Source: an uncultured Trueperaceae bacterium
Lineage (GTDB): Bacteria; Deinococcota; Deinococci; Deinococcales; Trueperaceae
Direction of reading: 5' to 3'
Assembly (NCBI GenBank): GCA_937873495.1
Contig: CALMXZ010000011.1
Span: 344,808 to 408,807 of the forward strand
DNA length: 64,000 bases
Shown: positions 1 to 48,142 of the stretch, piece after piece
Layout of the letters: every line of letters begins with the position of its first letter
How positions within the stretch are numbered: position 1 is the first letter of the stretch
Translations under genes and position numbers: made by a program
Notes under the pieces: generated by a model
What the model saw: the letters and a program-made list of their open reading frames with translations, nothing else
What the model was told of the DNA's origin: nothing
Databases searched by the model: none

Positions 1-3000
1 CCCCCACCGCACGCAGAGCTCCTCGACGGACCGCATGGCGGCGCTCGCTCGCTCCGCGGGCGCGGCGCCCGCCAGGACGGCCCACGACTGGGCTATCGAG
101 TCTATGCGCCACTCCGACGCCGCGGCGGTGCCAAGGGGCGTGCCGTCGTCGTAGAAGGCGCGTAGGTACCACCGGCCGTCCCAGGCGGACTCCTCACACG
201 CGCGCGCGTAGGCGTCGGCGCGCGCGGCCCAGCGCTCCGCCTCCGCGTCGCTCCCCCCGGCGTGGCCGAGGAGCCGGGTGAAGCGCCGGATGACGTCGAC
301 CAGGAACCAGGCCAGCCACACCGACTCGCCCTTGCCGGCCGCCCCGACGCGGTTCATACCGTCGTTCCAATCACCGGTGCCCATCAGCGGCAGGCCGTGC
401 CTGCCGAGCGTCGCGCCCTTCTCCAACGCCCTGCAACAGTGCTCGAGCAAGGTGCCAGACTCCTGCCCGGGCGCGTACGCGTCATACCGGTCCTCGGCGT
501 CCGGCGCGAGCGGGCGGCCGGTGAGGAACGGCACGACCTCCCCCAACACCCCGCTCTCACCCGTCGTCGTGACGTAGCGTTCGGTGGCGTAGACGAGCCA
601 GAGGAGGTCGTCGCTGATGCGGGTACGCACGCCGCGACCAGTGGGCGGGTGCCACCAGTGCAGGACGTCGCCCTCCTCGAACTGGTGCGCCGCGGCACGT
701 AGGAGCTGCGCGCGCGCCAGCTCCGGCGCGGCGTGCAAGAGCGCGACCACGTCCTGCAGCTGGTCCCTGAAGCCGTAGGCGCCGCCCGGCTGGTAGAACG
801 CCGTCCGCCCGAAGTAGCGGCTGGCGAGCGTCTGGTAGAGGAGCCAGCGGTTCGTCATGAGGTCAAGGGCCGGGTCGGGCGTGCTCACGCGCACCTTGTC
901 GAGCCTGGCGTCCCACACCGCCTCCGCCGCCGCCAGCTCCGCGGCGTAGGCCTCCAGGTCGCGGTAGCGCTCGGCAAGGTCGAGGGCGGTGGCGCGGTCC
1001 TCGGCTTGGCCGAGCGCGAAGAGGACCTCCTCAGAGCCGCCGACGGCTAGGTCCAGGTGCAGCTGCATGGCCGCGCACGGGTCGGTCCCTGGCGCGATAG
1101 TGCCGCCGAGGCCCACGCGCCGCAGCCCGTCCGGCATGGCGGGCGAGCCACGCCGACCGAGGAACTCGCGCCGGTCCGTCGTCACGCCGTGCGGGGGCCT
1201 GCTGCCGGCGAGGAACGCCACGCGCTCCCCGAAGTCGCTCGAGTAAGGGTTGCGGGCCAGTAGCACGTACCGTTCCGGCACGTAGTCGGGGAGCAGGTGG
1301 TGGCTCGTGCTCTGGCGGTCGACGCCGAGGACCCACTCGGCGTAGTAGGTGACGGTCACGCGCCGCGGCCGGTCGGACAGGTTCCTCACGCTCAAGCGCA
1401 CGAGCTTGACGGGGTCATGGGTGGCGACCGACACCTCGAGCGCCTGCTCGAGGCCGTGGCTCACGTGAGCGTAGGTCGTGCGACCCGCGCCGTGGCGCAC
1501 CTCGAACGGCTCCTCTCCCCCTGCCGGGTGCGGCGTCGCCGACCAGACTTCCGTCGTCTCCTCGTCGCGCAGGTAGACGGCCTCCGCGCTTGGATCGGTC
1601 ACCGGGTCGTTGCTCCACGGCGTGAGACGGTTCTCGCCGCTGTTCACGGCCCACGTGACGCTCAGGCCGGCCTCGGTCGTCAGGCAGCCGAGCGCCTCGT
1701 TGGCGATGACGTTCGACCATGGCGCCGGCGGCAGGGCGCCGCGGCGCGCGCGGATCACGTACTCGCGCCCGTCCTCGGTGAACCCGCCCCAGCCGTTGTC
1801 GTACCTGAGGTTCACCGCCTCCCCGCCCTCCGCCGCGCCCTGTTGGCGTTCCATGACAGGGGTTAGCAGCGGCAACCCTGGTCGGGGCGGCAGGTCAAGC
1901 GGCCGGAGCTGCTCGGCCAACGAGCCGCGCTCCCCGTCGAGGACGACCCGCGCGGCGCTCTCGAGCAACACGAGGTCCGCCGGGGCGAGCTGGTCGCGCC
2001 GCAGGAGGTAGATGCCACCTGGCACGGCAAGCCACGCGTCGCTGCCGAGCCTGACGAGCTGAGCGCGCAGGCGCCCGTGGAGGGTCTGGTCGTAGGCCGT
2101 GTCCTGCGTGTTCAGCACGACGACGTCCACCTTCACCCCGCGGCGGCGCCAGTAGGCGTGGGCGCGCAGCGTCTCGACCACCAGGGGTAGCCGCTCCGCG
2201 GAGTCGAGCCGGACGAGGACGATGGGCAGGTCGCCCGAGATACCCTGCCCCCACAAGGAGGGCTGGCCGAGCGTGTTGGCCGCCAACGTCGCGGCGGGAG
2301 CCCTGAGCTCCGGCAGTGGGTAGACGACGGCCGAGTAGAGCCGCTGGTAGGTCTCCACCGCCGCGGGGGTCAGGTCGTGCTCCTGCAGCTCGACGCGGCT
2401 ACGCAAGCGCGCGAGGTCGAACTCGCGCGCCACCATGCCGGGCTTGCGCAGCTCGTCGAGGAGGTCGGTGAGCTCGCGGGCGCTCGCGCCGCCGGCCGTC
2501 ACGAACGTGATCTCCTCCTGCGAGTGCGGCGCCAGCTCGAGCCGCACGGCCAAGGCCATGACCGGGTCGAGCGTGGCGTCCGGCCCCGCCGCACCCGCAC
2601 GCTCGGCGGCGCCGGCCCCACCTAGCGGCCCGCGCGGCCCGACGGCCGTCGTGACGTCGTTGCCGCGCCCGAGGAACGCCGCCCGGTCCGTCTCGTACTC
2701 GCACGGTGCGGAGTCATCGCGGCCGACGACGGCGTGGGCGGCGAAGAGCGCAGCCTCGTCCGCCGAGCGGGGCCGGCGGCGGAACAGGATGGCCGACCGG
2801 CCGGCCAGGAAGCTGCTCTCCACGAAGAGCTTGCTGAAAGCGGGGTGGCGGGCGTCGGCGGCCGCGGAGCCGAGCACGACCTCGGCGTAGGAGGTCACGT
2901 GCAAGACGCGGCTGGTCGCGCCACGGTTGACGACGGTCAGGCGCCGGAGCTCGGCCGCGCCCTTGGCCACCACGACCTCAAGGCGCGTCAGGATGCCGTC

Positions 3001-6000
3001 GAACTCCCGCTGGTACTCGACCTTGTAGGGGTAGAACACGACCCTGTCGTCCTGGACGCGCGTAGGCAGCGGACCAGGGGTCGCGGACCACACGGACCCG
3101 TCCCGGTCGTCGCGTACGAAGATCCAGGTGCCGTCGGCGTCGCGGGTCCCGTCCGGTCGCCAGCGCGTGATCGCGACGTCCCCCAGCGCCGACCAGCCGC
3201 CCCCCGCCTCGCTGAGCAGGACCGTGTACGCGCCGTTCGACAGCAGGTGGGTGGCGGGCGTGGCGGTGTCGACCGGCACGGGCCACGGCTCGTCGAGCGT
3301 TGCTACGTCGATAGGCGCGCTCGGGCTCTCGTCCTGCCGCAGGTCGTCGACCACGGGCACGTCGAGCGGGATGCGCTCCTGCAGCAAGTACTCGACGGTG
3401 GCCACCCGTGGGTCGGCGTGGAAACGTTCGACCATGGCGTCGTCCGTCAACGCGTTCGCCACGGCCAGCAAGACCATGCCCTGGTGGTGCGCCATGTGCG
3501 AGCGCACGAGCGCGCGGTCCTCCCCGAGCGGGCGGCGCTCGGGCGTGTAGTCGAGGGCCTCGAAGAAGCCGTGCGGCCCGAGGGCGCCGGCCTCGGCCAG
3601 GCGCACGGCGTTCTCGAGCACCGCCCCCGGCCTGCGCCTCAACGCCAGCATGCTCGCGTAGGGTGCGATCACGAGGTCGCTCGAGTACGAGCGGTTCAGC
3701 GCCAGCTCCGGCACGCCGAACGCGTGGTACTGGTAGTTCCCCGCGGCGTCCACGCGCGCGTAACCCGACTCGCTCACGCCCCACGGCACGCCGTTACGCT
3801 TGGCGAACGCCATCTGCACGTCGACGGCCGCCGCGCAGCTCTGGTCGAGCAGCGTCGCCCCGTACCGCCGCGTGAGCAGCTCGGGCATGAGGTACTCGAA
3901 CATCGTCCCGCTCCACGAGAGGAGCGCCGCCCGCCCGCCGAGGTCGCTCAAGGGGCGGTTGAGATGGACCCAGTGGCTGAGCGGCACGTCGTTCTTCGCC
4001 ACGGCCACCAGGCTGGCGAGGCGCGCCTCGGAGGCCAGCAGGTCGTAATGGTTCGAATCGAGCTGCTCGGTATCCACGTTGTAGCCGATATGCAGGAGCT
4101 GCCTATCGGGGTCGAAGAGGAAGGCGAAGTCGGTCGCGTCGATCTCGGCCTCGCTGAGCTCCGCCAGCTTCTCGAAGACCCGCGTCAACCCGGCGGCGGC
4201 GCTGCGGGCCGAGGCCAAGCGCGTCGCTAGGTCGTCGCACCAGGCGCGGCCGGCGGGGGCTACGGCCAGCTCATCGCCCAGCGCGGCCCGGAGCGAGCGC
4301 AACGCTTCGAGCGCCTTCTCCGCCCAAGCGCCCACCTCCCGCAGCGGCGGCTCGTGCGCCAAGGCGCCGACGACCGCCTGCCAAGCGGTGTGAGCAGGCG
4401 AACCCGGCTGGAGTCCGTCCGTCCAGGCGCGCGCCTCCCAGACGGCGCGTACCCAAGGAGCCAGAGAGGCGATCTCACCGAGCGTGACCTTGATCCCGTG
4501 CCGCACGCGCCCCGACCAGAGCCGCACGGCGTCGAGGTCGGGCCCGGTCAGGTCGCCGCCATGCATGGCGGCGACTATGACCTCCTCGACTGTCGGCCAG
4601 GCGTCCCCCTCGAGGAAGGCGATGGTGCTCGGCCACAGCTCGCGCTCGAGCGCGGCCGACTCGACGCGCTCGCGCAAGGCGGCGACGGCCGCGACGGCGG
4701 TGGGTCGCTCCGGCATGGCGGCGAAGAGGGCGTCCTCCAGGACGGCCAGCGCGTCCGTCAGGCCGCTGAAGAAGGCGGCCACGTCAACCGGGCGCTCGAG
4801 CAGCTGCGAGCACCCTTGCCGCAGCGCCACCAGCGCGGCAGCGAAGTTGCCCGAGTCGACGCTCGACACGTAGCGCGGGCGCAGGGGTTCGAGGCTCCGC
4901 GTGTCGTACCAGTTCAAGAGGTGGCCCCGGTAGCGCTCCATGCGCCCCAGGACGTCGAACGTCTGGCGCAAACGCACCGAGAGGTCGACGAGGCCAAGGT
5001 AGCCGAGGTCGTGGGCGGCGAGCGTCGAGAGGAGCATGAGCCCGACGTTCGTCGGGGAGGTGCGGTGGGCCGTGACCGTGCCGGCGCCGAGCTGCACGTT
5101 GTCGGGCGGCAGCCAGTTGTCCTCGGGCCCGACGAAGCGCTCGAAGTAGAGCCAGGTGCGGCGCGCCAGGCCGTGGAGCTCGCGGCGCTCGGCGTCCGTG
5201 AGCTCGCGCGGCGCGCCGTCCGTGGCGAGTGAGAGGAGGTGCGCACTCAGCGGGGCGAGGAGCCAGACGACGAGCGGGACGGCGGCGGCCATGAGGGCCT
5301 CTGGCCTCACAAGCGCGACCGCCAGCGCGGTGAGCGCGCTCAGCGCGAGCGCCCACCCCATGCGGCTGACGTTCCCGGCGAGCGTGGGCGGCGGCTCGCG
5401 GTTCGTGAGCGCGGCCGTGCGCCACTCCAGCAGGTTCCTACGCGTGACGAACAGGCGGTAGAGGGTCACGGCGACGCTCCGCACCACCATGCCGGCCTCG
5501 TAAGGCACGAACGACAGCGTGATCGCGAAGCGTCCGAAGGCTTGGCTCAACGGCTGCCACGGTGTCAACCTCCGCCGCCCGGGCACCGTGTAGTTCTCGA
5601 TCAGGCCGTCAAGGTAGGCGATGACCGCGCCGGCGAGCAGCGGCGCGGCCAAGGTGGAGAGGGCTATCAGGGTCCAGACGCCGGGCGAACCGGGCAGGAC
5701 GAGCCAACCGGCCACGAAGAGCGCGAGGAGCGCCGGGGCGACGAGGCTGCGCCGCAGGTTGTCCGCGACCTTCCACGCACCCGCCGGCCCGAGGCGCTCC
5801 CCCCTGCTGCGCGCGCCGACCAGCGTCGCGAGCAGCCACGGGAGGAGCTGCCAGTCGCCTCGGATCCACCGCTGGGCGCGCCTGACCTGCGCCAGGTAGG
5901 TGGGCGGGTACTCCTCGAACAGGACGACGTCGCTCACGAGGGCAACGCCGCCGTAGATGCCCTCGAGCAGGTCGTGGCTCAGGAGGCTGTTCTCCGGCAC

Positions 6001-7968
6001 GTGGTCGGCGAGCGCACGCTCGAAGTCGTCGACCCGGTAAAGGCCCTTGCCGACGAAGATCGCGGCGCCGAACAGGTCCTGGTAGACGTCGGAGACGGCG
6101 TGGGTGTAGAGGTCGAGCCCGTTCTCGCCGACGAACAGGCGGCTGAAGCGCGAGGCGTTGGCGCTCTCGGGCAGCACGTCGGTGCGCGGCTGGAGCAAGC
6201 TGTAGCCGGCGACGACGCGGCCGTCCTCCCCGAACTCGGCGCGGTTGAGAGGATGCGCGAGCGTGCCTATCAGGCTCACCGCCGCGCCGGGTGGCAGGCG
6301 CGTGTCGGCGTCGAGGGTCAGGACGTACTCGGTTCCTATGAGCTCGGCGACGTCGCCGACGATGAACTCGAACGTCGTGTCGTCCGCACCGCGCAGGAGC
6401 CGGTTGAGTTCCATGAGCTTGCCGCGCTTGCGCTCCCACCCCATCCAAGTGCCCTGGCTCGCGTTCCAGCGCCGGCCGCGGTGCAGGAGGTAGAAACGCC
6501 CCCGCCGGTCGGCGACCCCGTCGGCCACCCCGCCGGCTGGTCCGTACGCGCCGTTCAGGCGCTCCACCCGCCGCCGCGCGTGCGCCAGGAGGTCGGGCTC
6601 GCCAGGCAGCGTGGCCGCCGCGGCGTCGGGGAAGTCGGTCAGCAGCGCGAACGCCAGGCGCGGGTCGGGGTTGCCGAGGTAGTGGCGTTCCAGCTGCCCG
6701 AGCAGGTCGTCGACCTCCTCCCGGCTCGCCACGAGCACGGGCATCACGACGAGCGCGGCGTAGCGGGCGCGCTCGTCGGCCCCTGGGCCAACGCGCGGCG
6801 CGGCAGCCCCCGGGTCCGCGCGCGGCGAGCCGCCGCCGAGGTCGAGGCGCGGCAGGAGCGTCGGGGCGAGGAGACGGTTGAGGGCGTAGTTGACGACCGC
6901 GACCGCCACGGTGAACGCGGGCACGACGAGCAGCGCCGCCGCGAGAGCGACCAGCCATACCGCCGCGCCCGACGCGGCGGCGTACGCGCCGCCCCAGAGG
7001 AGCAGCGTCGCCGCCACGAGCCCGACGCTCCCCAAGTAGACGAAGGTCGGGTGGGCCTTGACCCACGCGCGCGAGCGCTCGCCCATCCGGCGCCGGTAGC
7101 CGAAGGCGTCCTCGAGGAGCGGCGCGCCCCGGTCGATCAAGTAGTAGCCCACGTGCCCGGCCCGCCGGCGCGCCTGGGGCTGCTCCCCGGCGGCGCGCGC
7201 GAGGCGGACGGCCTCGCGGGCCACGGCGACCTCGTCCGTGCCGGTGCGGCGCGCCACCCGCTCGACCACCTTCCGGTAGCGGTCGCGCGTCGCGAACGTC
7301 ATGCGCGCATAGTCGCCGCTCGCGTCCTTACGCAGCTCCCGCTCGCTGTGGCTCGCCGCCTCGAAGAAGACGCGCCAATCGGTGCTCTTGACGGTCCTCA
7401 AGCCGACGATGCAGTCCGCCACGCGCTGCTGGTGGCTCTCGCGCTCGGCGTGGTCGTCCGCCTGGCTCGGGGGCGCCGTGAGCAGCTCGGCGCTCTCCGT
7501 CAACCAGTCGAGGAGAACGAGGCGCAGGAGGCCCGGGAGGGCCCACAGCTCGCCCATGGACAACGGGGCGACGGCCTGGTAGTCCTCCAGCAGGGCACCC
7601 GCCCTGGCGATGTCGAGGCGCCCGCCGCATTCGTCGAGGAGCAGGACGGCGAGGGCCTCCGCGCGCGCGGCCCCGCCGCCTACCGCGCCGTCGGCGAGGC
7701 ATGGCAGACGCCGGTAGAAGTCGGTCGGGAGGTCCTGGGTCGCCTGCCTCACGGACTCCCTGATGAGGTAGTAGTTGTCGAGGAACCACTCGGCGGCGTA
7801 CGAGCCCGTAGTCGTCGTCTCGGCCTCGGCGCCGAAGGCGCGGTGCGCTCGGGCCAGCTTGCGCGTCATCTCGGCGAGGCGCGTGGCCGGGGTCGGCTGA
7901 GCGCGCTTGCTGGGCTCGAGCCCGGCGCCCACGTGCTCTTCCGCCCAGGCGCGCGCCGGACCAGCCAT
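1..7968 (-). CDS. Giant glycosyltransferase, cyclic beta-1,2-glucan synthase-like (GT-2/GT84 domain plus GH94-like C-terminal region). N-terminal roughly 2655 codons; the gene continues beyond the window start. Start codon uncertain (ATG 7966-7968, or GTG 7987-7989).
   Basis: Minus frame with triplets congruent to 1 mod 3 has first-position-of-plus-triplet GC of about 58/60 in a sampled 180 nt, i.e. minus GC3 about 97%, while all plus frames show mixed or low GC3. Hand translation gives MAGPARAWAEEHVGAGL...AEWFLDNYYLIRES..., the DxD motif region VLTLDADTRLPPGA, and the QxxRW motif AQRWIRGDWQ. It continues through ...LPESANASRFSRLFVGENGLDLYTHAVSDVYQDLFGAAIFVGKGLYRVDDFERALADH... with no stop. 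The ORF track lists no minus ORF in this frame between 1 and 8000, consistent with an open frame lacking a stop inside the window. The plus ORFs 262..702, 733..1050, 1297..1866, 2734..4230 and 5239..8109 are its codon-aligned antisense shadows. Confidence 0.6.
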   Translation of the reverse strand, partial: MAGPARAWAEEHVGAGLEPSKRAQPTPATRLAEMTRKLARAHRAFGAEAETTTTGSYAAEWFLDNYYLIRESVRQATQDLPTDFYRRLPCLADGAVGGGAARAEALAVLLLDECGGRLDIARAGALLEDYQAVAPLSMGELWALPGLLRLVLLDWLTESAELLTAPPSQADDHAERESHQQRVADCIVGLRTVKSTDWRVFFEAASHSERELRKDASGDYARMTFATRDRYRKVVERVARRTGTDEVAVAREAVRLARAAGEQPQARRRAGHVGYYLIDRGAPLLEDAFGYRRRMGERSRAWVKAHPTFVYLGSVGLVAATLLLWGGAYAAASGAAVWLVALAAALLVVPAFTVAVAVVNYALNRLLAPTLLPRLDLGGGSPRADPGAAAPRVGPGADERARYAALVVMPVLVASREEVDDLLGQLERHYLGNPDPRLAFALLTDFPDAAAATLPGEPDLLAHARRRVERLNGAYGPAGGVADGVADRRGRFYLLHRGRRWNASQGTWMGWERKRGKLMELNRLLRGADDTTFEFIVGDVAELIGTEYVLTLDADTRLPPGAAVSLIGTLAHPLNRAEFGEDGRVVAGYSLLQPRTDVLPESANASRFSRLFVGENGLDLYTHAVSDVYQDLFGAAIFVGKGLYRVDDFERALADHVPENSLLSHDLLEGIYGGVALVSDVVLFEEYPPTYLAQVRRAQRWIRGDWQLLPWLLATLVGARSRGERLGPAGAWKVADNLRRSLVAPALLALFVAGWLVLPGSPGVWTLIALSTLAAPLLAGAVIAYLDGLIENYTVPGRRRLTPWQPLSQAFGRFAITLSFVPYEAGMVVRSVAVTLYRLFVTRRNLLEWRTAALTNREPPPTLAGNVSRMGWALALSALTALAVALVRPEALMAAAVPLVVWLLAPLSAHLLSLATDGAPRELTDAERRELHGLARRTWLYFERFVGPEDNWLPPDNVQLGAGTVTAHRTSPTNVGLMLLSTLAAHDLGYLGLVDLSVRLRQTFDVLGRMERYRGHLLNWYDTRSLEPLRPRYVSSVDSGNFAAALVALRQGCSQLLERPVDVAAFFSGLTDALAVLEDALFAAMPERPTAVAAVAALRERVESAALERELWPSTIAFLEGDAWPTVEEVIVAAMHGGDLTGPDLDAVRLWSGRVRHGIKVTLGEIASLAPWVRAVWEARAWTDGLQPGSPAHTAWQAVVGALAHEPPLREVGAWAEKALEALRSLRAALGDELAVAPAGRAWCDDLATRLASARSAAAGLTRVFEKLAELSEAEIDATDFAFLFDPDRQLLHIGYNVDTEQLDSNHYDLLASEARLASLVAVAKNDVPLSHWVHLNRPLSDLGGRAALLSWSGTMFEYLMPELLTRRYGATLLDQSCAAAVDVQMAFAKRNGVPWGVSESGYARVDAAGNYQYHAFGVPELALNRSYSSDLVIAPYASMLALRRRPGAVLENAVRLAEAGALGPHGFFEALDYTPERRPLGEDRALVRSHMAHHQGMVLLAVANALTDDAMVERFHADPRVATVEYLLQERIPLDVPVVDDLRQDESPSAPIDVATLDEPWPVPVDTATPATHLLSNGAYTVLLSEAGGGWSALGDVAITRWRPDGTRDADGTWIFVRDDRDGSVWSATPGPLPTRVQDDRVVFYPYKVEYQREFDGILTRLEVVVAKGAAELRRLTVVNRGATSRVLHVTSYAEVVLGSAAADARHPAFSKLFVESSFLAGRSAILFRRRPRSADEAALFAAHAVVGRDDSAPCEYETDRAAFLGRGNDVTTAVGPRGPLGGAGAAERAGAAGPDATLDPVMALAVRLELAPHSQEEITFVTAGGASARELTDLLDELRKPGMVAREFDLARLRSRVELQEHDLTPAAVETYQRLYSAVVYPLPELRAPAATLAANTLGQPSLWGQGISGDLPIVLVRLDSAERLPLVVETLRAHAYWRRRGVKVDVVVLNTQDTAYDQTLHGRLRAQLVRLGSDAWLAVPGGIYLLRRDQLAPADLVLLESAARVVLDGERGSLAEQLRPLDLPPRPGLPLLTPVMERQQGAAEGGEAVNLRYDNGWGGFTEDGREYVIRARRGALPPAPWSNVIANEALGCLTTEAGLSVTWAVNSGENRLTPWSNDPVTDPSAEAVYLRDEETTEVWSATPHPAGGEEPFEVRHGAGRTTYAHVSHGLEQALEVSVATHDPVKLVRLSVRNLSDRPRRVTVTYYAEWVLGVDRQSTSHHLLPDYVPERYVLLARNPYSSDFGERVAFLAGSRPPHGVTTDRREFLGRRGSPAMPDGLRRVGLGGTIAPGTDPCAAMQLHLDLAVGGSEEVLFALGQAEDRATALDLAERYRDLEAYAAELAAAEAVWDARLDKVRVSTPDPALDLMTNRWLLYQTLASRYFGRTAFYQPGGAYGFRDQLQDVVALLHAAPELARAQLLRAAAHQFEEGDVLHWWHPPTGRGVRTRISDDLLWLVYATERYVTTTGESGVLGEVVPFLTGRPLAPDAEDRYDAYAPGQESGTLLEHCCRALEKGATLGRHGLPLMGTGDWNDGMNRVGAAGKGESVWLAWFLVDVIRRFTRLLGHAGGSDAEAERWAARADAYARACEESAWDGRWYLRAFYDDGTPLGTAAASEWRIDSIAQSWAVLAGAAPAERASAAMRSVEELCVRWG

Positions 7969-8012
7969 GTCTCGGTCGTCGTCGGGCACCGTTGCAGGCG
8001 CGTCCGCGCCGG

Positions 8013-8936
8013 TCACCCGCCCCACGTCGCTTCCGTCGCGTCGCCCGGGCGGGCGGCGCGCTCCTGCCATGGCAAGTCGTGGATCACCAGGAGGGGCGTC
8101 GGCACGTAGTCGATGAGGTTGGTCGTCACCTCCCCGAACGGCCATGTGTGGTCGCCGCCGAAGCCGTGGGCGCTCATGACGACGAGGTCGGGTGCGCACT
8201 CGCGCACGAGGTCGTGAAGCGCGGGCGCCGCTCGGCGCCCGGCCACCAGGCGCGCTTCGGCGCCGCGGCCGAGGCCGGCGGCAAGGTCGGTCAGGTACTG
8301 CTTGGCGGCGGCCGTGTTGAGCTCGACGAGCCGCGCGGAGAGCTGCCGCTCCTCGGCGGCGGCCGGCACAGGGCGGGGCACGGCCGGCTCCTCCACCACG
8401 TGCGTCAGGATCACGTGCGCCCCGAACCGCTCGGCCAGGAACCGCACGACGGGCAGCACGCACTCGGCGCGCTGGGAGCCGTCGAGCGCCACCATGACCG
8501 TCTCGTAAGGGCCGGCTCGCTCGGTCGTTTCACCCCTGACGAGCAGCGTTGAGATGAACGACCGCCAGAGGACGCGCCCGCCGACCGCCCCGAAGTGGGC
8601 ACCACCCGCGGCGCCCGTCGGCATGACCAGGAGGTCGGCGCCCTGGTGGGCGCGGCGCACGATGTTCTCCGCGACCTGGCCCTCGGGCAGGTAGTGGGTG
8701 ACCGAGAGCCCGACGCCCGCGAGTAGCGCGCTCACGTGCTCGAGGTAGGCCTGGGCGGCCAGGCGCCGCGCATGCCATTCGACGGCGTCCACTGCTTGGG
8801 ACTCCCCGGCGGGAGCTTCGAGGACGTGCAGCAACTCCACGGTGGCGCCGGAGCCGAGCGCCAGGTCGCGGGCGTGCGCGATGGCTGGTCGGTCGAGGTC
8901 GGTGCCGGTCAACGGCAGCAAGAGATGGTTGAACAT
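8013..8936 (-). CDS. Universal stress protein, tandem UspA domains
   Basis: 307 aa with two UspA-like halves (…VELLHVLE…LLVMPT… and …HVILTHVVE…LVVMSAHGF…). AG-rich RBS GGAAGGAGGAG upstream. Confidence 0.7.
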   Translation of the reverse strand: MFNHLLLPLTGTDLDRPAIAHARDLALGSGATVELLHVLEAPAGESQAVDAVEWHARRLAAQAYLEHVSALLAGVGLSVTHYLPEGQVAENIVRRAHQGADLLVMPTGAAGGAHFGAVGGRVLWRSFISTLLVRGETTERAGPYETVMVALDGSQRAECVLPVVRFLAERFGAHVILTHVVEEPAVPRPVPAAAEERQLSARLVELNTAAAKQYLTDLAAGLGRGAEARLVAGRRAAPALHDLVRECAPDLVVMSAHGFGGDHTWPFGEVTTNLIDYVPTPLLVIHDLPWQERAARPGDATEATWGG

Positions 8937-11394: not shown

Positions 11395-12621
11395 TCAGAC
11401 GAGCCCGAGCTCCTTGCCGGCCTGGACGAAGGCGGCGACCGCGTGCTCCAACTGCGCGCGCGTGTGGGCGGCCGACATCTGGGTGCGGATGCGCGCCTGG
11501 CCGCGCGGCACGACCGGGAACGAGAAGCCGACGACGTACACGCCGAGCTCCAACATGCGCTCGGCCAGGCGGGTGGCGAGCGCGGCGTCACCGATCATCA
11601 CGGGGATGATGGGGTGCCCTTCGCCCGCCAGGGTGAACCCGGCGTCCGTCATGGCGCCCCGGAAGTAGGCGGCGTTGTCGCGCAGCCGCTCGCGCAGCTC
11701 GGCGCCGCCCTCGAGCAGGTCCAGGACCTTGAGCGAGGCAGCCACCACGCTCGGCGCGAGCGAGTTGGAGAAGAGGTACGGCCTGCTGCGCTGCCTAAGC
11801 CACTCGACGATCTGCCGCCGGCCGCTCGTGTAGCCGCCGGAAGCGCCCCCAAGGGCCTTTCCGAGGGTGCCTGTGAGGATGTCGACGCGGCCCTCGACGC
11901 CGCGCGCCTCGAACGAGCCCCGACCGTTCTCGCCCGTGAAGCCCGTCGCGTGGCTGTCGTCGACCATGACGAGGGCGTCGAAGCGGTCCGCCAGGTCGCA
12001 GACGCCCGCCAGGTCGGCGATGACGCCGTCCATCGAGAACACGCCGTCGGTGGCGATGAGCTTGACGCGCGCGCCGGCGGCGTCCGCGGCACGGAGCTGC
12101 CTCTCCAGGTCCGCCATGTCGTTGTTGTTGTACCTGAAGCGCTTCGCTTTCGACAGGCGCACGCCGTCGATGATGCTGGCGTGGTTGAGGGCGTCGGAGA
12201 CGATGGCGTCCTCCTCGCCGAGGAGCGTCTCGAAGAGGCCGCCGTTCGCGTCGAAGCAGCTCGAGTAGAGGATCGTGTCGTCGGTGCCGAGGAAGGCGCT
12301 GAGGCGCCCCTCGAGCTCCTTGTGGATGTCCTGCGTGCCGCAGATGAAGCGCACGGAGGCGACCCCGAAGCCCCGCTCGTCGAGGCCGCGTTGGGCCGCC
12401 GCGATGACCTCCGGGTGGTTGGCCAGCCCGAGGTAGTTGTTGGCGCAGAGGTTGAGGACCTCGCGCTCCACGCCGCCGTCGCTCACCGTCACGCGCGCCT
12501 GTTGCTGCGATGAGATCACGCGTTCGGACTTGTAGAGGCCCTCGGCGCGCAGACCGGCGAGCCGGCTCTCCAGGTCCGTGAGGAACGCGGCGCGAACGGC
12601 GCCGGGACGATCACTCGCCAT
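11395..12621 (-). CDS. kbl: 2-amino-3-ketobutyrate CoA ligase (glycine C-acetyltransferase), PLP-dependent
   Basis: 408 aa. Class-II aminotransferase fold with lysine motif DSHATGF…TLGKALGG. Classic kbl-tdh order. Confidence 0.9.
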
Positions 12622-15028
12622 ACGGCACCCACACGTTCTTGACCCGGGTGGCGCGGCGGAGGAACTCGGGGCCCGCCGCCTGCGCGTCGTCGTACCAGTC
12701 GCGCGCCCTGCCCGAGTTCACCCACGTCGCCTTCAGGTTGCCCGCGCTCTCGCGCTCCACCATGGCGCTCCCTTCGGCCGAGCCCACGTACCAGATGGCC
12801 TCGACGGCGTCGTGCTGAGCGAGGACCTTGGCGAGCTCGTCGCGCACGCCCGTCACGATGTTGATGGCCCCGCCCGGCACGTCGGACGTATCGAACACCT
12901 GATAGAGGTCGGTGACCGGCAGCGGCCAGCGCGCGCTCGGCACGGCGACCACGCGGTTGCCCATGGCGAGCGCGGGCGCGACGAGCGAGACGAAGGCGAG
13001 GAGCGGCGCCTCGTCGGGGCACACGACGGCGAGGACGTCGTACGGCTCGTTCATGGCAAGCGTCACGTTGCGCATGGGGGTCGGATGCACGCGCCCGTCG
13101 TACTTGTCGGCGTAGGCGGCGGCGGAGAACAAGCGGTCGACGCTCTTCTCGACCTCGCGGCCCGCCGCCTTGCGCGTGCCGCCCACCAGGCTGCGCAGGC
13201 GCTCCTCGAACTCCGGCGCGCGCGCGGACAGGTTCTCGGCCACGTAGTAGAGGACCTGGGCGCGCGCATGCGCGGTCGCCTGGGTCCAGGCGCCGGACTT
13301 CACGGCTGCCTCGACGGCGTCGCGCACGTCCTTGCGGTTGCCTAAGGGGGCGTCGCCGACCCGCGCTCCCGCGGCGCTGAGCACCGGGTAGGAGTAGTTG
13401 CCGTCGGGGCGCTTCTGCTTGCCGCCGATGTAGAGCTTCGGCGTGCGGTCGATCGGGGCGAACGCCACGGCCCCCCCATGACCGCCATCGAGGCCGGCTC
13501 CGAGGTCGGAGGCGGCCGCCGGCGGCGCCAGGTCGCCGCTCGAGTAGCGCGCCAGGCGCGCCTCGAAGCGGGGCTTGAGGTACTCGAACATCCCTTCCCT
13601 GCCTCCCTCGCGCCCGAAGCCGCTCTCGCGGTAGCCGCCGAAGCCGGCCGCCGCGTCGAACTGGTTGGTGCAGTTCACCCACACGACGCCGGCCTTGAGC
13701 TTGGGCGCGACGTCTAGGGCCAGGTTGATGTTCTCCGTCCATACGCTCGCGGCGAGGCCGTAGCGCGTGTCGTTCGCCAGCTCGACCGCCTCGGCGGGGG
13801 TGCGGAACGTGAGGCTCACGATCACCGGGCCGAAGATCTCTTCCTGCGCGATGGCGGCGGCCGGGGAGACCTCGGTGAACAGGGTCGGCGGGTAGTACCA
13901 GCCGTCCTTCGGCGCGCTCCAGCTCGGCTGGTAGCACCGCGCGCCCTCGGCCCTGCCCTGCTCGACGAGGCGCTCGATCTTGGAGAGCTGGACGGGCGCG
14001 ATGATCGCGCCGATGTCTATCCCCTTGTCGAGCGACGGACCCTCGCGCAACGTCTCCATGCGCGCGACGAGCTTGGCCTCCATGCGCCTCGCGACGCTCT
14101 CCTGCACGAGCAGGCGGCTGCCGGCGCAGCAGACCTGGCCCTGGTTGAACCAGATCGCGTCGACGACGCCCTCGACGGCGCTGTCCAGGTCGGCGTCGTC
14201 GAAGACGATGAACGGCGACTTGCCGCCCAGCTCGAGGGAGAGCTTCACGCCGCGCCCCGCCGTGGCGCGGCGGATGATGCGCCCCACCTCGGTGGAGCCC
14301 GTGAACGCCACCTTGTCGATGCCGTCGGCATCAACGAGCGCGGCGCCCGTGAGCCCGTCGCCCGTAACGACGTTGAAGACGCCGGCCGGGAGGCCGACCT
14401 CGTTGGCGAGCTCGGCGAAGAGCAGGGCCGTGAGGGGCGTGAACTCGGCCGGCTTCAGCACTACCGTGTTGCCGGCGGCCAAGGCCGGGGCTACCTTCCA
14501 AGCGAGCATGAGCAGCGGGAAGTTCCACGGGATGATCTGGGCGCAGACGCCCACGCCCTCGTAGTCGGGGAACTCCTTGTCGAGCAGTTGTGCCCAGCCC
14601 GCGTGGTGGTAGAAGTGGCGCGCCACCAATGGCACGTCGAGGTCGCGGGTCTCGCGGATGGGCTTGCCGTTGTCGAGCGCCTCGAGGACCGCCAGCAACC
14701 GGGCGTGCTTCTGCACGTGCCGGGCGAGGGCGTACAGGTAGCGGGCCCGGCCGGGGCCGCCCAGATCGCGCCAAGCCGGCAGCGCGGCCCGGGCCGCCTT
14801 GACGGCCTTCGCCACGTCGCGCTCGTCGCCCTGCGCCACCTGGGCCAGCTCCTTGCCGTCACCGGGGTGGTAGGTGGCGAAGGTCTCGCCGGCGGCCGGC
14901 TTTACGAAGCGCCCACCGATGAAGTGTCCGAAACGCCTGCCGTGGCGTTCGAGCCACGCCACCGCGACGTCGGCCGCCTCGGGGGCGGGGCCGTACTCCA
15001 TCGTCTCGAAGATCTCCTTCACGCTCAT
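12611..15028 (-). CDS. Aldehyde dehydrogenase family protein with a second, degenerate ALDH-like C-terminal domain (805 aa)
   Basis: N-terminal domain has the ALDH catalytic motifs ELGGKSP and [15 protein letters not shown]. The C-terminal roughly 315 aa is ALDH-like but lacks the Cys and Glu motifs. Overlaps the kbl start by 11 nt. Confidence 0.8.
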
Positions 15029-21892: not shown

Positions 21893-23137
21893 GTGACGGG
21901 TCGCTGGGTCTGGGGCCTGGCGCTCGGCTGCTTCGTGCTGGCGGCCGGTACCGGCGCGTACTACCGCTTCAAGCTCGTCTATGCGTTGCCCGGCGTGCTC
22001 GAGTACGTCAGGCACGCCCATTCGCACCTGATGTTCTTCTCGTGGGTGACGCCCGTCCTGGTGCTGCTCGTGGGGGCGTACCTGGCGCGCGAGGGCTTGA
22101 GACCGCGGCTCTTCGGCTTCACGGCCGCCCTCGCCGCCTTCAGCGGGCTCGCGACCTACCTGCCGTTCCTGAAGAGCGGCTACCACCTGATGGTCGTCGG
22201 CTCCAAGGCCCTGCCGATCTCGATGATGATCTCGGGCGCCAACGGCGTGGCGTGGTACCTGTTCGTCGCCGCGTACCTGGTCGCGACGTGGCGCGTCGAG
22301 CGCCGGCCCGTGCTCCGGCTGCTCGACGGCGCCGTGGCGATGATCGTGGTCAGCACGGTCGCGATAGCCGGGCTCGCCTACCTCGGCATGAGCGGCCAGG
22401 TGGCGCGGCCGCTCATGCTCGCGCTCGTCGACTGGTTCCTCACGTGCTTCGCCGACGGTTGGTTCGGCCTCGCCGTGCTGGCGTTGGCTGCCAGGCACGC
22501 GCTGCGGGCCGGGCTGAGCCGCGCGCCCGTCGGACTGGCGGCCTGGTCGCTCGTGGCCGCCATCGGCGTGCGCAGCGCCGCCCGCTTCGCGACCGACGGG
22601 CTCGGCTGGCCGTGGCCGGCGGGGGTCGACGCCGTCGCGAGCGCGGTCGCCGCCCTCGCCTGGCTCGTGCTCGTGCGCGCCGTGTGGCCCGTCGACCCGG
22701 AAGCCGGGTTGAGGGGAAGCACGTTGTGGCTCCGGCAGCTCGCCCTGGCGCTCCTCGGGCTCAAGGGGGTGGTCGAGCTCGCGGGCGCGCTGCCGGTGGT
22801 GCGCGCGGAGCTGATGGCCGCGCCGTTCCACGTCTTCTTCCTCCACGCGTTCCTGCTCGGCGCGGTGAGCTTCTCGCTCCTGTACGGCGTCCGCACGGCC
22901 ATCGCGCCGACGGCCTTCAAGGGGGCGACCGCCTTCATCGTCGCGGTGGGGGTGATGGTCGGCGCGCTGGTGACCCTGACGCCGGTCTGGCCGAGCGCCA
23001 TGGCCGGCCCCTGGGTGCTCTACGCGACGGCGGTCACGAGCCTCGGGCCGCTGCTCGTGGCATTGCAGGCGCTGCTCAGGCTCGACCTCGGGTCCGGCTC
23101 CAGAGCCACACGACCGCCAGCAGCAGCGCGAAGGTGA
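21893..23137 (+). CDS. Polytopic membrane protein, possibly NnrS-family-like
   Basis: 414 aa with about 12 TM segments. His-rich segment YVRHAHSHLMFFSW. GTG start after GAGGAG. The 3' end overlaps the convergent MFS gene by about 60 nt. Confidence 0.45.
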   Translation: MTGRWVWGLALGCFVLAAGTGAYYRFKLVYALPGVLEYVRHAHSHLMFFSWVTPVLVLLVGAYLAREGLRPRLFGFTAALAAFSGLATYLPFLKSGYHLMVVGSKALPISMMISGANGVAWYLFVAAYLVATWRVERRPVLRLLDGAVAMIVVSTVAIAGLAYLGMSGQVARPLMLALVDWFLTCFADGWFGLAVLALAARHALRAGLSRAPVGLAAWSLVAAIGVRSAARFATDGLGWPWPAGVDAVASAVAALAWLVLVRAVWPVDPEAGLRGSTLWLRQLALALLGLKGVVELAGALPVVRAELMAAPFHVFFLHAFLLGAVSFSLLYGVRTAIAPTAFKGATAFIVAVGVMVGALVTLTPVWPSAMAGPWVLYATAVTSLGPLLVALQALLRLDLGSGSRATRPPAAARR

Positions 23138-45871: not shown

Positions 45872-48142
45872 TCAGCCCTCCCCTGCGCGGTCGGTCGGGC
45901 CGGCTTGCGCCGCGGTCGCCGCCGCGGGCTCTGCCGCCGGTTCCTGCCTCGCGCCCCACTTGAGCGGGTTCGTTAGGCGCTCCGGTAGGAAACCCTTGGC
46001 GGCTATGAACAGCACGACGAGCGCCAGGATCATGCTCACGACGTCGCGGGTGAGGTCGGGGAACGTGATGTTCAGGACCGAGCCGCCGTATTTGAGGACG
46101 CCGAAGAGGAACGCGGAAGCGACGATGAACGCTGGTTGGTTGGCGCCGAGGAGCGCCACCGCGATGCCGTCGAAGCCGTCGCTGGTCGGGATGGACTGAC
46201 GCAACGCGTAGTCCTCGAGGGCGCCTCCCAGGACGTAGTGGGTGGCCGTGAGGCCCGCCAGCGCTCCGCTGATGGCCATGGCCATGATCGTGTTACGACC
46301 GATGCGCGCCCCGCCGTACTCGGCGGCGCGCGGTGAGAACCCGACGGCGCGCAGCTCGTAGCCCCAGCGCGTCTTGAACAGGAACACCTGCACGAACACC
46401 GCCATGAGGAGGGCGATGAGGAAAGAGAGGTTGAGTTTCGTCGGCGGGATGGCGGTAGCGACGCCGGTGAGGCCGACGAGGGCGCCAAGCCCGTAGAGGA
46501 CGCCGCCGACGCCGAGCGCCCCGACGAGGCGGGCGACCCAACCCTTCAGGCGCCCGATGCGGCCGAGCCGGAACGCGGCCACCACCGCGCCGAGCAGCGC
46601 CACGAGGCCGGCGTAGTCGATGCGCACGACGTTGACCCCGCCGCGCGTCACGCCGAGCATGGCCGGGAGCTGCGGTAGCCGCGCGCCCGCGTTGAGCGGC
46701 CGCGACTTCGGCTCGTTGCCTGGCACCTTGAAGGGCATGTTCACCGTGACGGGCTGGTCGCCGGTGCGCGGCAGGCCGGCCACGACGCAACCGGCCAGCA
46801 GCACTACCGCCCCGACGGCGAAGGCGGCGCGCGGCGCGCGCTTGGCTCCGCGCCGGACGGCGGGGACGAGGAACGCGACGCTCAGCAAGACGAGGAAGGC
46901 ACCGATGGCCAGGAAGATCCGCACCGCGGCCGCGGCGAACACGTTGCCGGCGGAGAGGATGAAGAGCAGGACGGACGCGGCCACGAAGTTCAGGAGGATC
47001 GTGTTGATGACCTCGTTGGCGCCGAACCGCGCCTTCAGCCAGCCGGGGAGCGCGCCCCAGAGGCCACCGCCGAGCGCGGCGAACAGGACGGCTACGGGCA
47101 GCACCACGAAGCGCGGCCCGGGCATGTAGATCCCGGCGAGCATGGCGAAGATGGCCCCCATGACCATCTGGCCGGGGGCGCCGATGTTGAAGAGCCCGGC
47201 CTGGAAGCCGAACGCCACCGCCAGCCCCGTGAAGATGAGCGGCGTCGCGAACTTGAGCGACTCGGCGAAGCCGTTCACGGTGCCGAGCGAATCGTGGAAC
47301 ATGGAGTAGTAGGCGTACCAGAGCGTGTCGAGGCGCCCGACGAGCGCGTTGAAGGCGCCGCTCACTTGGGCGCCGGCGCCGACGGGCGTGCCCTGCAGGG
47401 CGAGGATGACGACCGCGGCAGCTAGCAGTGCCAGGAGGATGGCGGTGGCCGGCACGGCCGCCGCGCGCAGCAGCCGGTCTATCACTTGCCCGGCGCCGCG
47501 GAAGACCCTGGCGCCGAAGAGGAGCGCGAAGGCGCCCGTGACGACGGCCAGGAACGCGCTGAAGCCAACACCTGCGTTCGTGTACGGCAGGCGCCTGACG
47601 ACGAGCCCGGCGGCGTCAGCCTCGGCCAGCCCCTCGGTGAGGTTGCGTTCGCTGTCGGGCTGCTCGGCGGCGGCGAGCAGCGCCTCGAGCTTCTCGACGT
47701 CGTAGGCGGGCCGCGGCCTCTCGATGGCGCCGCGCACCTCGCCGAGGAACGCGTCGTAGCGGGCGCCCTCGACGGCGCCGGTCAACCGCCCCATGCCCCA
47801 GGCCGTGCCGACGACGAGCACGAGCCCGCCCGCCAACCACGCGAAGCGCCGCGCCTTCGCAGGCAGCGCGCCGCCTCCCGCCACGAGCGCCAGGCCAACG
47901 AGCGTGAGCACGAGGACCGCGCCTTGCTGCGGGAGTTCGATGGGTTGGGTGCGGCCCGTGAAGTCCACGTACCGCTCGGGGAGCAGGACGACGGCGCTGC
48001 GCGCGCCGGTCTCGCGGTTGATGGCGGCCCACGGAGCGAAGACGACCGCCAGCGCCGTCACCAACGCCAGCACGATCAGTGCCATACGCTCGTTCACGCT
48101 GGCCATCATACGTAGTGTCGGCCTTGGCACTGGCCGCGTCAT
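45872..48142 (-). CDS. ABC transporter permease, BPD_transp_2 family, unusually long (756 aa) with a large N-terminal extension
   Basis: C-terminal roughly 350 aa is a typical RbsC/YufP-like permease. N-terminal roughly 400 aa has additional TM segments and a soluble insert. Start codon uncertain. Confidence 0.65.
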   Translation of the reverse strand: MTRPVPRPTLRMMASVNERMALIVLALVTALAVVFAPWAAINRETGARSAVVLLPERYVDFTGRTQPIELPQQGAVLVLTLVGLALVAGGGALPAKARRFAWLAGGLVLVVGTAWGMGRLTGAVEGARYDAFLGEVRGAIERPRPAYDVEKLEALLAAAEQPDSERNLTEGLAEADAAGLVVRRLPYTNAGVGFSAFLAVVTGAFALLFGARVFRGAGQVIDRLLRAAAVPATAILLALLAAAVVILALQGTPVGAGAQVSGAFNALVGRLDTLWYAYYSMFHDSLGTVNGFAESLKFATPLIFTGLAVAFGFQAGLFNIGAPGQMVMGAIFAMLAGIYMPGPRFVVLPVAVLFAALGGGLWGALPGWLKARFGANEVINTILLNFVAASVLLFILSAGNVFAAAAVRIFLAIGAFLVLLSVAFLVPAVRRGAKRAPRAAFAVGAVVLLAGCVVAGLPRTGDQPVTVNMPFKVPGNEPKSRPLNAGARLPQLPAMLGVTRGGVNVVRIDYAGLVALLGAVVAAFRLGRIGRLKGWVARLVGALGVGGVLYGLGALVGLTGVATAIPPTKLNLSFLIALLMAVFVQVFLFKTRWGYELRAVGFSPRAAEYGGARIGRNTIMAMAISGALAGLTATHYVLGGALEDYALRQSIPTSDGFDGIAVALLGANQPAFIVASAFLFGVLKYGGSVLNITFPDLTRDVVSMILALVVLFIAAKGFLPERLTNPLKWGARQEPAAEPAAATAAQAGPTDRAGEG

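Follow-up and report, generated by a model that had tools for sequence, protein, structure and literature searches.

A very large gene at the edge of a Trueperaceae sequence window very likely encodes a three-module synthase of cyclic beta-1,2-glucan

Which gene, if any, occupies the first 8 kb of a 64,000-nucleotide stretch from an uncultured Trueperaceae bacterium (contig CALMXZ010000011.1; this whole stretch is termed the window here)? The track of open reading frames (ORFs) presents this part as gene-free, and long ORFs overlie it on the plus strand. We show here that a single ordinary gene of very large size fills this part and is truncated at the window edge, and that the overlying plus-strand ORFs have to be discarded. 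Judged from its sequence, the product is in all likelihood a synthase of cyclic beta-1,2-glucan (Cgs) with three catalytic modules, GT84, GH189 and GH94. The gene, termed cgs below, is an edge-truncated and already predicted member of a well-characterised, very widespread enzyme family. Directly upstream lies a gene for a tandem universal stress protein (Usp), and this conserved Usp-Cgs pair is a lead on cyclic-glucan regulation outside Proteobacteria.

Coding frame, extent and start of the gene

Translation of the reverse complement from position 7968 down to 1 gives 2,656 sense codons and not a single stop, and the frame runs past the left window edge. The other five frames contain 9, 63, 63, 67 and 19 stops across 1-7968. 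GC at codon positions 1, 2 and 3 of this minus frame is 0.741, 0.511 and 0.938, which is the expected signature of a real gene at the GC content of this window (71.2%). The initial annotation had taken the minus frame as the coding one from a block at 6001-6180, in which 58 of 60 third codon positions were counted as G or C. Our recount gives exactly the same number, GC at the third codon position (GC3) follows the coding pattern when compared per frame, and an in-frame stop, against which the claim had been staked beforehand, is absent between 1 and 7968. Two long ORFs of the plus strand, 2734..4230 (498 amino acids, aa) and 5239..8109 (956 aa), do exist and have start codons, and one might regard them as the real genes and the minus frame as open by chance in GC-rich DNA. 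We consider this hardly conceivable, because GC by codon position in their frame is 0.94/0.51/0.74, the mirror of the coding pattern, this frame contains 9 stops over the region against none in the minus frame, and the minus-strand product has at least 1,400 homologues and an end-to-end match to solved structures. The first codon position of the plus-strand ORFs is the third of the minus frame, and they are therefore antisense shadows, as had been proposed. Codon-position GC, stop counts and the Pfam and homologue matches to the minus-strand product rule them out as genes.

The giant frame is missing from the ORF list because the lister omits ORFs that run off the end of the source, in line with the earlier view that the gene leaves the window on the left before any stop. 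Its description as uncalled is correct for the ORF track but not beyond it, since a predicted protein of 100% identity, P0001 with 2,874 aa, is already present in NCBI, ENA and Logan, where it is unnamed and has the same Pfam domains precomputed. The end of the gene could be read from the ENA contig ERZ27240675:k141_201600 (locus L081), whose sequence shows no difference from the window in the 18,070 bases compared. Here, the gene goes on for 184 codons past the window edge and then reaches a stop, and the C-terminus is normal.

At the other end the nearest in-frame upstream stop lies at 8532-8530, and GTG 7989, GTG 8016, GTG 8025 and ATG 8070 are available as starts besides ATG 7966-7968, from which the initial annotation had translated. 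Full length is 2,840 aa from ATG 7968, 2,856 aa from GTG 8016 and 2,874 aa from ATG 8070. With its start at ATG 8070, the public gene model (P0001) overlaps the upstream Usp gene by 58 nt, whereas GTG 8016-8014 overlaps the TGA of that gene (8015-8013) as GTGA. The relatives at 88% and 67% identity likewise show a 4-nt overlap (ATGA) between the upstream stop and the ATG called for cgs. The N-terminus of P0002, MTGAGAAP..., matches VTGADAP... as read from GTG 8016, and the relatives have 20-30 residues ahead of the first conserved motif, a distance that is 20 residues from GTG 8016, 4 from ATG 7968 and 38 from ATG 8070. Because of the N-termini of the relatives and the conserved 4-nt overlap of stop and start, GTG 8016 is probably the start. 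ATG 7968 and ATG 8070 fit both features less well and were rejected.

Domain architecture and catalytic residues

Residues are numbered here according to P0001 (from ATG 8070), unless stated otherwise. The best match among solved structures is Cgs from Agrobacterium tumefaciens (8rf0/8rf9), with 1,568 bits for the part in the window and 1,760 bits for the full protein, and the alignment is collinear in three stretches spanning residues 67-2836. The next match is the cyclization domain of Thermoanaerobacter italicus CGS in its crystal structure (8wy1), with an E-value of about 1e-123 over both halves of the domain, followed by stand-alone GH94 phosphorylases, which match the C-terminal part. 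Pfam finds PF06165 (GH94 supersandwich, 447 bits) in two copies, PF17167 (GH94 catalytic, 241 bits; the match covers positions 2-299 of the 420 in the profile and is truncated by the window edge) and PF10091 (62 bits, 'putative glucoamylase'). The GH94 region aligns to residues 2342-2793 of 8rf0 at 498 bits, and its C-terminal 184 residues are visible only in the identical contig L081. The initial annotation had described a Cgs-like architecture of GT84 and GH94, and the Pfam matches (GH94, the glycoamylase-like PF10091 and GT-2) together with the full-length homology to 8rf0/8rf9 bear this out; the failure of profile models to match, which had been named as evidence to the contrary, did not occur. 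Both modules are present, but a third was missed, since the PF10091 region is the GH189 cyclase. The motifs read by hand, LTLDADT (LDADT at residue 552) and QRWIRGDWQ (residue 699; both counted from ATG 7968), are there, and the transmembrane (TM) helices reported to follow them correspond to four segments found by hydropathy. Altogether six TM helices are predicted from hydropathy, two before and four after the GT domain, matching the six-helix TM domain of A. tumefaciens Cgs (PMC10901819).

The order of parts is thus the same in both proteins: an N-terminal domain (NTD), two TM helices, GT84, four TM helices, cyclase and GH94. Length is similar too, with solved chains of 2,799 and 2,818 residues compared to about 2,856 aa here. 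The two differ in sequence (about 40-45% identity, judged from proteobacterial homologues such as those of Xanthomonas at 42-43%), in the NTD, which is about 55-70 residues shorter here, and in a variable helical insert inside the cyclase domain (about residues 1137-1309), which is unalignable to its A. tumefaciens counterpart (1170-1261). They also differ in their hosts, a Trueperaceae-like member of the Deinococcota here and an alphaproteobacterial symbiont or pathogen there, and in their surroundings, as here a tandem-Usp gene with overlapping stop and start codons lies upstream and no gene of the Cgt/ChvA/NdvA type is found in the window or in the 10 kb beyond.

We mapped every residue that has been tied to function by mutation or structural assignment in PMC10901819 and PMC10834661 (Table 1). 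Chain numbering of 8rf0 equals that of PMC10901819, with D624 and D626 falling on LDADT, and for 8wy1 the chain positions differ by 1,003 from the numbering of T. italicus CGS. Conservation was read from a MAFFT alignment of 123 full-length homologues. At all 18 mapped columns the window protein carries the consensus residue; 15 of these are invariant, and conservation is at least 98% in the remaining three. All mapped cyclase residues belong to the invariant ones, and E1442, E1356, E1400 and H1536/H1537 of T. italicus CGS are all conserved here. The putative primer site Y655, in GLDLYTH, aligns to Y694 in GIDPYVF of the A. tumefaciens enzyme (the IF1-homology loop) and is a tyrosine in 123 of 123 homologues. 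The mapped active-site residues and the primer tyrosine of A. tumefaciens Cgs are thus conserved along the collinear alignment. In T. italicus the solved structure is that of the isolated domain; here, the domain is embedded in a full synthase, and its helical insert is longer and unrelated in sequence. Collinearity, the GT84 motifs, the primer tyrosine, six predicted helices, the GH189 glutamate pair and the GH94 aspartate were all found, that is, everything by which a Cgs can be recognised from its sequence, and we therefore regard the protein as a very likely member of this family.

Table 1. Features of the cgs gene and its product, with the adjoining and downstream genes. Atu, A. tumefaciens Cgs; Ti, T. 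italicus CGS; residues of the window protein in P0001 numbering; n = 123 homologues.
Feature	Position in window	Strand	Basis or remark
cgs coding sequence	1..8016	-	Open frame, GC3 0.94; preferred start GTG 8016-8014; last 184 codons and stop beyond the left edge
N-terminal scaffold domain (NTD), cytoplasmic	7051..8016	-	Aligns to Atu 64-185 and 273 onward
Predicted TM helices 1-2	6877..7050	-	Kyte-Doolittle segments 341-362, 362-398
GT84 glycosyltransferase, modified GT-2 fold	5761..6783	-	phmmer to 8rf0, 540 bits; Pfam Glyco_trans_2_3
GT84 D479 (Atu D527, UDP-binding Asp)			Near-invariant
GT84 R547 (Atu R586)			
GT84 D587/D589 (Atu D624/D626, DxD)	6312-6304		D587 invariant, D589 near-invariant
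GT84 Y655 (Atu Y694, autoglucosylated primer)	6108-6106		
GT84 D700 (Atu D739, catalytic base)	5973-5971		Invariant
GT84 R734/W735 (Atu R773/W774, QxxRW)	5871-5866		Invariant
GT84 R737 (Atu R776)			
Predicted TM helices 3-6	5221..5751	-	Hydrophobic segments 774-795, 797-820, 903-922, 923-950
GH189 cyclization (beta-1,2-glucanotransferase) domain	3337..5202	-	8wy1 match, E about 1e-123; PF10091
Cyclase S1069/D1072 (Atu S1101/D1104)			
Cyclase E1348 (Atu E1300 = Ti E1356, acid/base)	4029-4027		
Cyclase E1392 (Ti E1400)			
Cyclase E1434 (Ti E1442, nucleophile)	3771-3769		
Cyclase H1528/H1529 (Ti H1536/H1537)			
GH94 phosphorylase region: two supersandwich modules and (alpha/alpha)6 catalytic domain	1..3336	-	PF06165, PF17167
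GH94 D2436 (Atu D2393)	765-763		Invariant
GH94 D2570 (Atu D2528, catalytic acid, GDWND)	363-361		Invariant
Tandem-Usp gene, 307 aa, two Usp domains	8013..8936	-	Pfam Usp 107 bits, two stretches; TGA 8015-8013
Downstream block conserved in Trueperaceae: ferredoxin, H+-pyrophosphatase, phosphoglucomutase (580 aa), three more Usp genes, HisKA_3/GerE two-component pair	L081 18675-27168, beyond the left window edge		Same in L083 and L084

Parts of the protein resemble other well-known enzymes. Stand-alone GH94 phosphorylases (1,2-beta-oligoglucan, cellobiose and chitobiose phosphorylases; 1v7v, 3qde) share the supersandwich and (alpha/alpha)6 fold with the C-terminal approximately 800 residues, and also the catalytic aspartate in DWND. 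These are, however, soluble proteins of about 800 aa, whereas here the module is partly duplicated and is part of a fusion with a membrane GT and a cyclase. A stand-alone GH94 phosphorylase was ruled out, as GH94 makes up the C-terminal third of a membrane protein of about 2,856 aa. With BcsA, a processive membrane GT-2 enzyme, the protein has in common the GT-A fold and the D, DxD, D, QxxRW set beneath a TM bundle (PMC10901819). In contrast to BcsA, A. tumefaciens Cgs lacks both a PilZ domain and a trans-membrane export channel, and the loop with the primer tyrosine takes the place of the IF1 helix (PMC10901819). A PilZ domain is likewise absent from the Pfam matches of the window protein.

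By analogy with the A. tumefaciens and T. italicus enzymes, the GT84 domain under its six-helix membrane anchor would glucosylate its own loop tyrosine, Y655, from UDP-glucose and would then lengthen a beta-1,2-glucan chain on this primer. The C-terminal GH94 domain would trim the chain with phosphate, giving off glucose-1-phosphate and setting the chain length, and would also serve as a glucan-binding scaffold. The central GH189 domain would cut the chain and join its ends by transglycosylation (nucleophile E1434, acid/base E1348), a step expected to free a cyclic glucan of roughly 17-25 residues. Roles of the cyclase residues are taken from PMC10834661 (T. italicus) and PMC10901819 (A. tumefaciens). 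A very large gene in a genome of the metagenome-assembled (MAG) type, with a deletion in its NTD, might also be a decayed or inactive Cgs relic, either a pseudogene or a scaffold-only protein. Such decay seems to us most improbable: the frame is free of stops and frameshifts across 8.6 kb, the catalytic residues are all intact, and length and synteny are kept down to 54% identity within the family, which argues for purifying selection.

Several observations weigh against the assignment to Cgs. The Pfam match to Glyco_trans_2_3 is marginal (28.6 bits, cut-off 27), so that the assignment to GT84 relies on direct homology to the GT84 domain of A. tumefaciens. The NCBIfam scan of the product matched no family and offered no model naming the protein. 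The NTD is without about 55 residues that are present in most Cgs, and the literature we searched for cyclic beta-1,2-glucan in Deinococcota gave incidental mentions only. Finally, a fused ABC exporter of the Cgt/ChvA/NdvA type is found neither in the 64-kb window nor in the 10 kb past its left edge. This search comprised Pfam on 20 window genes, the gene list of the 10 kb beyond the edge and a search of the window and all 87 loci for Walker A plus LSGGQ within open frames of 450 aa or more. ABC systems among the 20 genes are of importer type only, plus an ABC-2 permease, and the pattern returned candidates in L011 and L025 only, along with a frame of 466 aa in L086 overlapping genes for ABC ATPases. 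However, an exporter-type gene lies near cgs in just two of 80 other loci, and its absence around the cgs of the window therefore says little.

The upstream tandem-Usp gene and a Usp-linked clade of Cgs

Of 80 species-representative loci, 12 have a Usp homologue directly upstream of cgs and on its strand, and so has every Trueperaceae relative. The loci with an upstream tandem Usp are L001-L005, L008-L010, L047, L058, L059, L076 and L081-L087. In the Trueperaceae loci the Usp stop overlaps the cgs start, as GTGA or ATGA and by 13 nt in L086/L087. We calculated a neighbour-joining tree from 73 full-length Cgs over 2,653 well-occupied columns, without bootstrap. In this tree the 15 Usp-linked loci group together in a single clade that includes no further sequence and is drawn from about five phyla: Trueperaceae (L076, L081, L083, L084, L086), Chloroflexota (L001, L002, L004, L008, L009, L047, L058), Sphaerochaeta (L003), Polyangiaceae (L005) and Planctomycetaceae (L010). 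A sixteenth Usp-linked locus, L059, labelled as a delta proteobacterium, is outside the tree. Members of the clade are without 12 + 43 alignment columns of the NTD (about 55 residues) that more than 70% of the other Cgs have. These deletions sit after residues 198 and 206 (about 7450-7480 of the window, minus strand) and are the same gap as that seen in the alignment to A. tumefaciens Cgs between residues 185 and 273. In addition, nine substitutions are diagnostic for the clade, for example W1649 and S1752. These features may mark a Usp-linked subfamily of Cgs in Trueperaceae, Chloroflexota and single lineages of Planctomycetota, Myxococcota and Spirochaetota that is not described in the literature we searched, where the Usp-Cgs link surfaces only incidentally, in omics lists.

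A functional coupling of Usp and Cgs is suggested by the conserved adjacency and the overlapping stop and start codons only. The two genes are probably co-translated, and this suggests a possible stress-linked control of the synthase, for example by osmotic stress. It is possible, though we propose it only tentatively, that Usp partners with Cgs, by physical contact or by regulation, and gates the synthesis of cyclic glucan in response to stress or nucleotide status; the protein might dock where the NTD segment is missing. Does the clade then still make the classical product? The coincidence of all 15 loci with an upstream tandem Usp in one exclusive clade, their common deletion of about 55 residues and nine diagnostic substitutions, the lack of a dedicated exporter nearby and the further Usp genes and two-component pair kept just downstream in Trueperaceae would all suit an enzyme of the Cgs family with a non-classical product or role, and thus a clade that is functionally distinct. 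Such an enzyme could make another ring size, could supply a cytoplasmic glucan as compatible solute or reserve, or could carry out Usp-gated synthesis. We consider this rather unlikely. The classical enzymes have the same primer tyrosine and the same three catalytic centres, all of them intact here, so that unchanged chemistry is the default; exporter genes are seldom adjacent even in Proteobacteria-type loci; and the tree that defines the clade carries no bootstrap values. A classical Cgs remains the reading we prefer for the window protein.

Distribution and chromosomal neighbourhood

Cgs have mostly been studied as a factor of symbiosis, virulence and hypo-osmotic adaptation in Alphaproteobacteria. 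The protein search with the window protein returned at least 1,416 homologues at E-values of 1e-10 or below, and almost all of the best 120 have a length of about 2,800-3,000 aa and the same three core Pfam domains. Among the loci listed from GTDB species representatives are those of Chloroflexota, Acidobacteriota, Planctomycetota, Verrucomicrobiota, Myxococcota, Nitrospirota, Spirochaetota, clostridial Bacillota, Gemmatimonadales, Elusimicrobiota, Proteobacteria including Xanthomonas, and a second Trueperaceae lineage. The initial annotation had judged that such an enzyme would be notable in a Deinococcota-like context. The context itself was reasonably named, given Trueperaceae relatives with near-identical gene order, but the surprise does not hold: several Trueperaceae lineages carry cgs at a conserved position, and with at least 1,400 homologues in many phyla a Cgs in Trueperaceae is not surprising. 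Adding a lineage of Deinococcota (Trueperaceae) to the hosts of Cgs is accordingly an incremental step, as hundreds of environmental lineages already carry the enzyme. Many homologue entries at JGI are already named 'cyclic beta-1,2-glucan synthetase', and other relatives are labelled 'hypothetical protein', 'cellobiose phosphorylase' or 'GH36-type glycosyl hydrolase domain-containing protein'. Public annotation under-describes the family, and no NCBIfam model fits the protein of about 2,850 aa.

The closest named relatives, among the matches listed, come from Trueperaceae MAGs and are entered as 'hypothetical protein', for example MBX3140942.1 (88% identity). In GCA_019637515.1, cgs lies in a 28-kb region with nearly the gene order of the window, and the only difference is an extra 139-aa gene. 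The neighbourhood is kept in Trueperaceae relatives with protein identities of 88%, 67% and 54%. The block downstream of cgs (Table 1) may be a neighbourhood of stress response and sugar-nucleotide supply. Its phosphoglucomutase gene lies about 3 kb downstream of cgs, and the enzyme could recycle glucose-1-phosphate released by GH94 toward the supply of UDP-glucose.

The rest of the window is ordinary chromosome, with a phosphonate-type ABC importer, alaS, a HAD hydrolase, ruvX, a YceG-family gene, a two-component pair, uvrC and a 2-oxoacid dehydrogenase E2 gene. Neither tRNA genes (tRNA scan) nor Rfam matches at the gathering threshold were found in the whole gene-dense window of 64 kb. Three of its ORFs deserve mention in their own right. 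The 414-aa ORF at 21893-23137 (plus strand) has a strong coding signature (GC3 0.95) and no Pfam match at E-values of 1e-4 or below. At 12611-15028 (minus strand) an 805-aa protein is encoded that contains two aldehyde-dehydrogenase domains (fused double Aldedh), and its gene adjoins those for an aminotransferase, an alcohol dehydrogenase (ADH) and DeoC in all Trueperaceae relatives examined. A 756-aa ORF at 45872-48142 (minus strand) has two stretches matching Pfam BPD_transp_2 (branched-chain amino-acid permease), the best at residues 561-710; it is unusually long for this family and may represent a fusion or an over-extended start.

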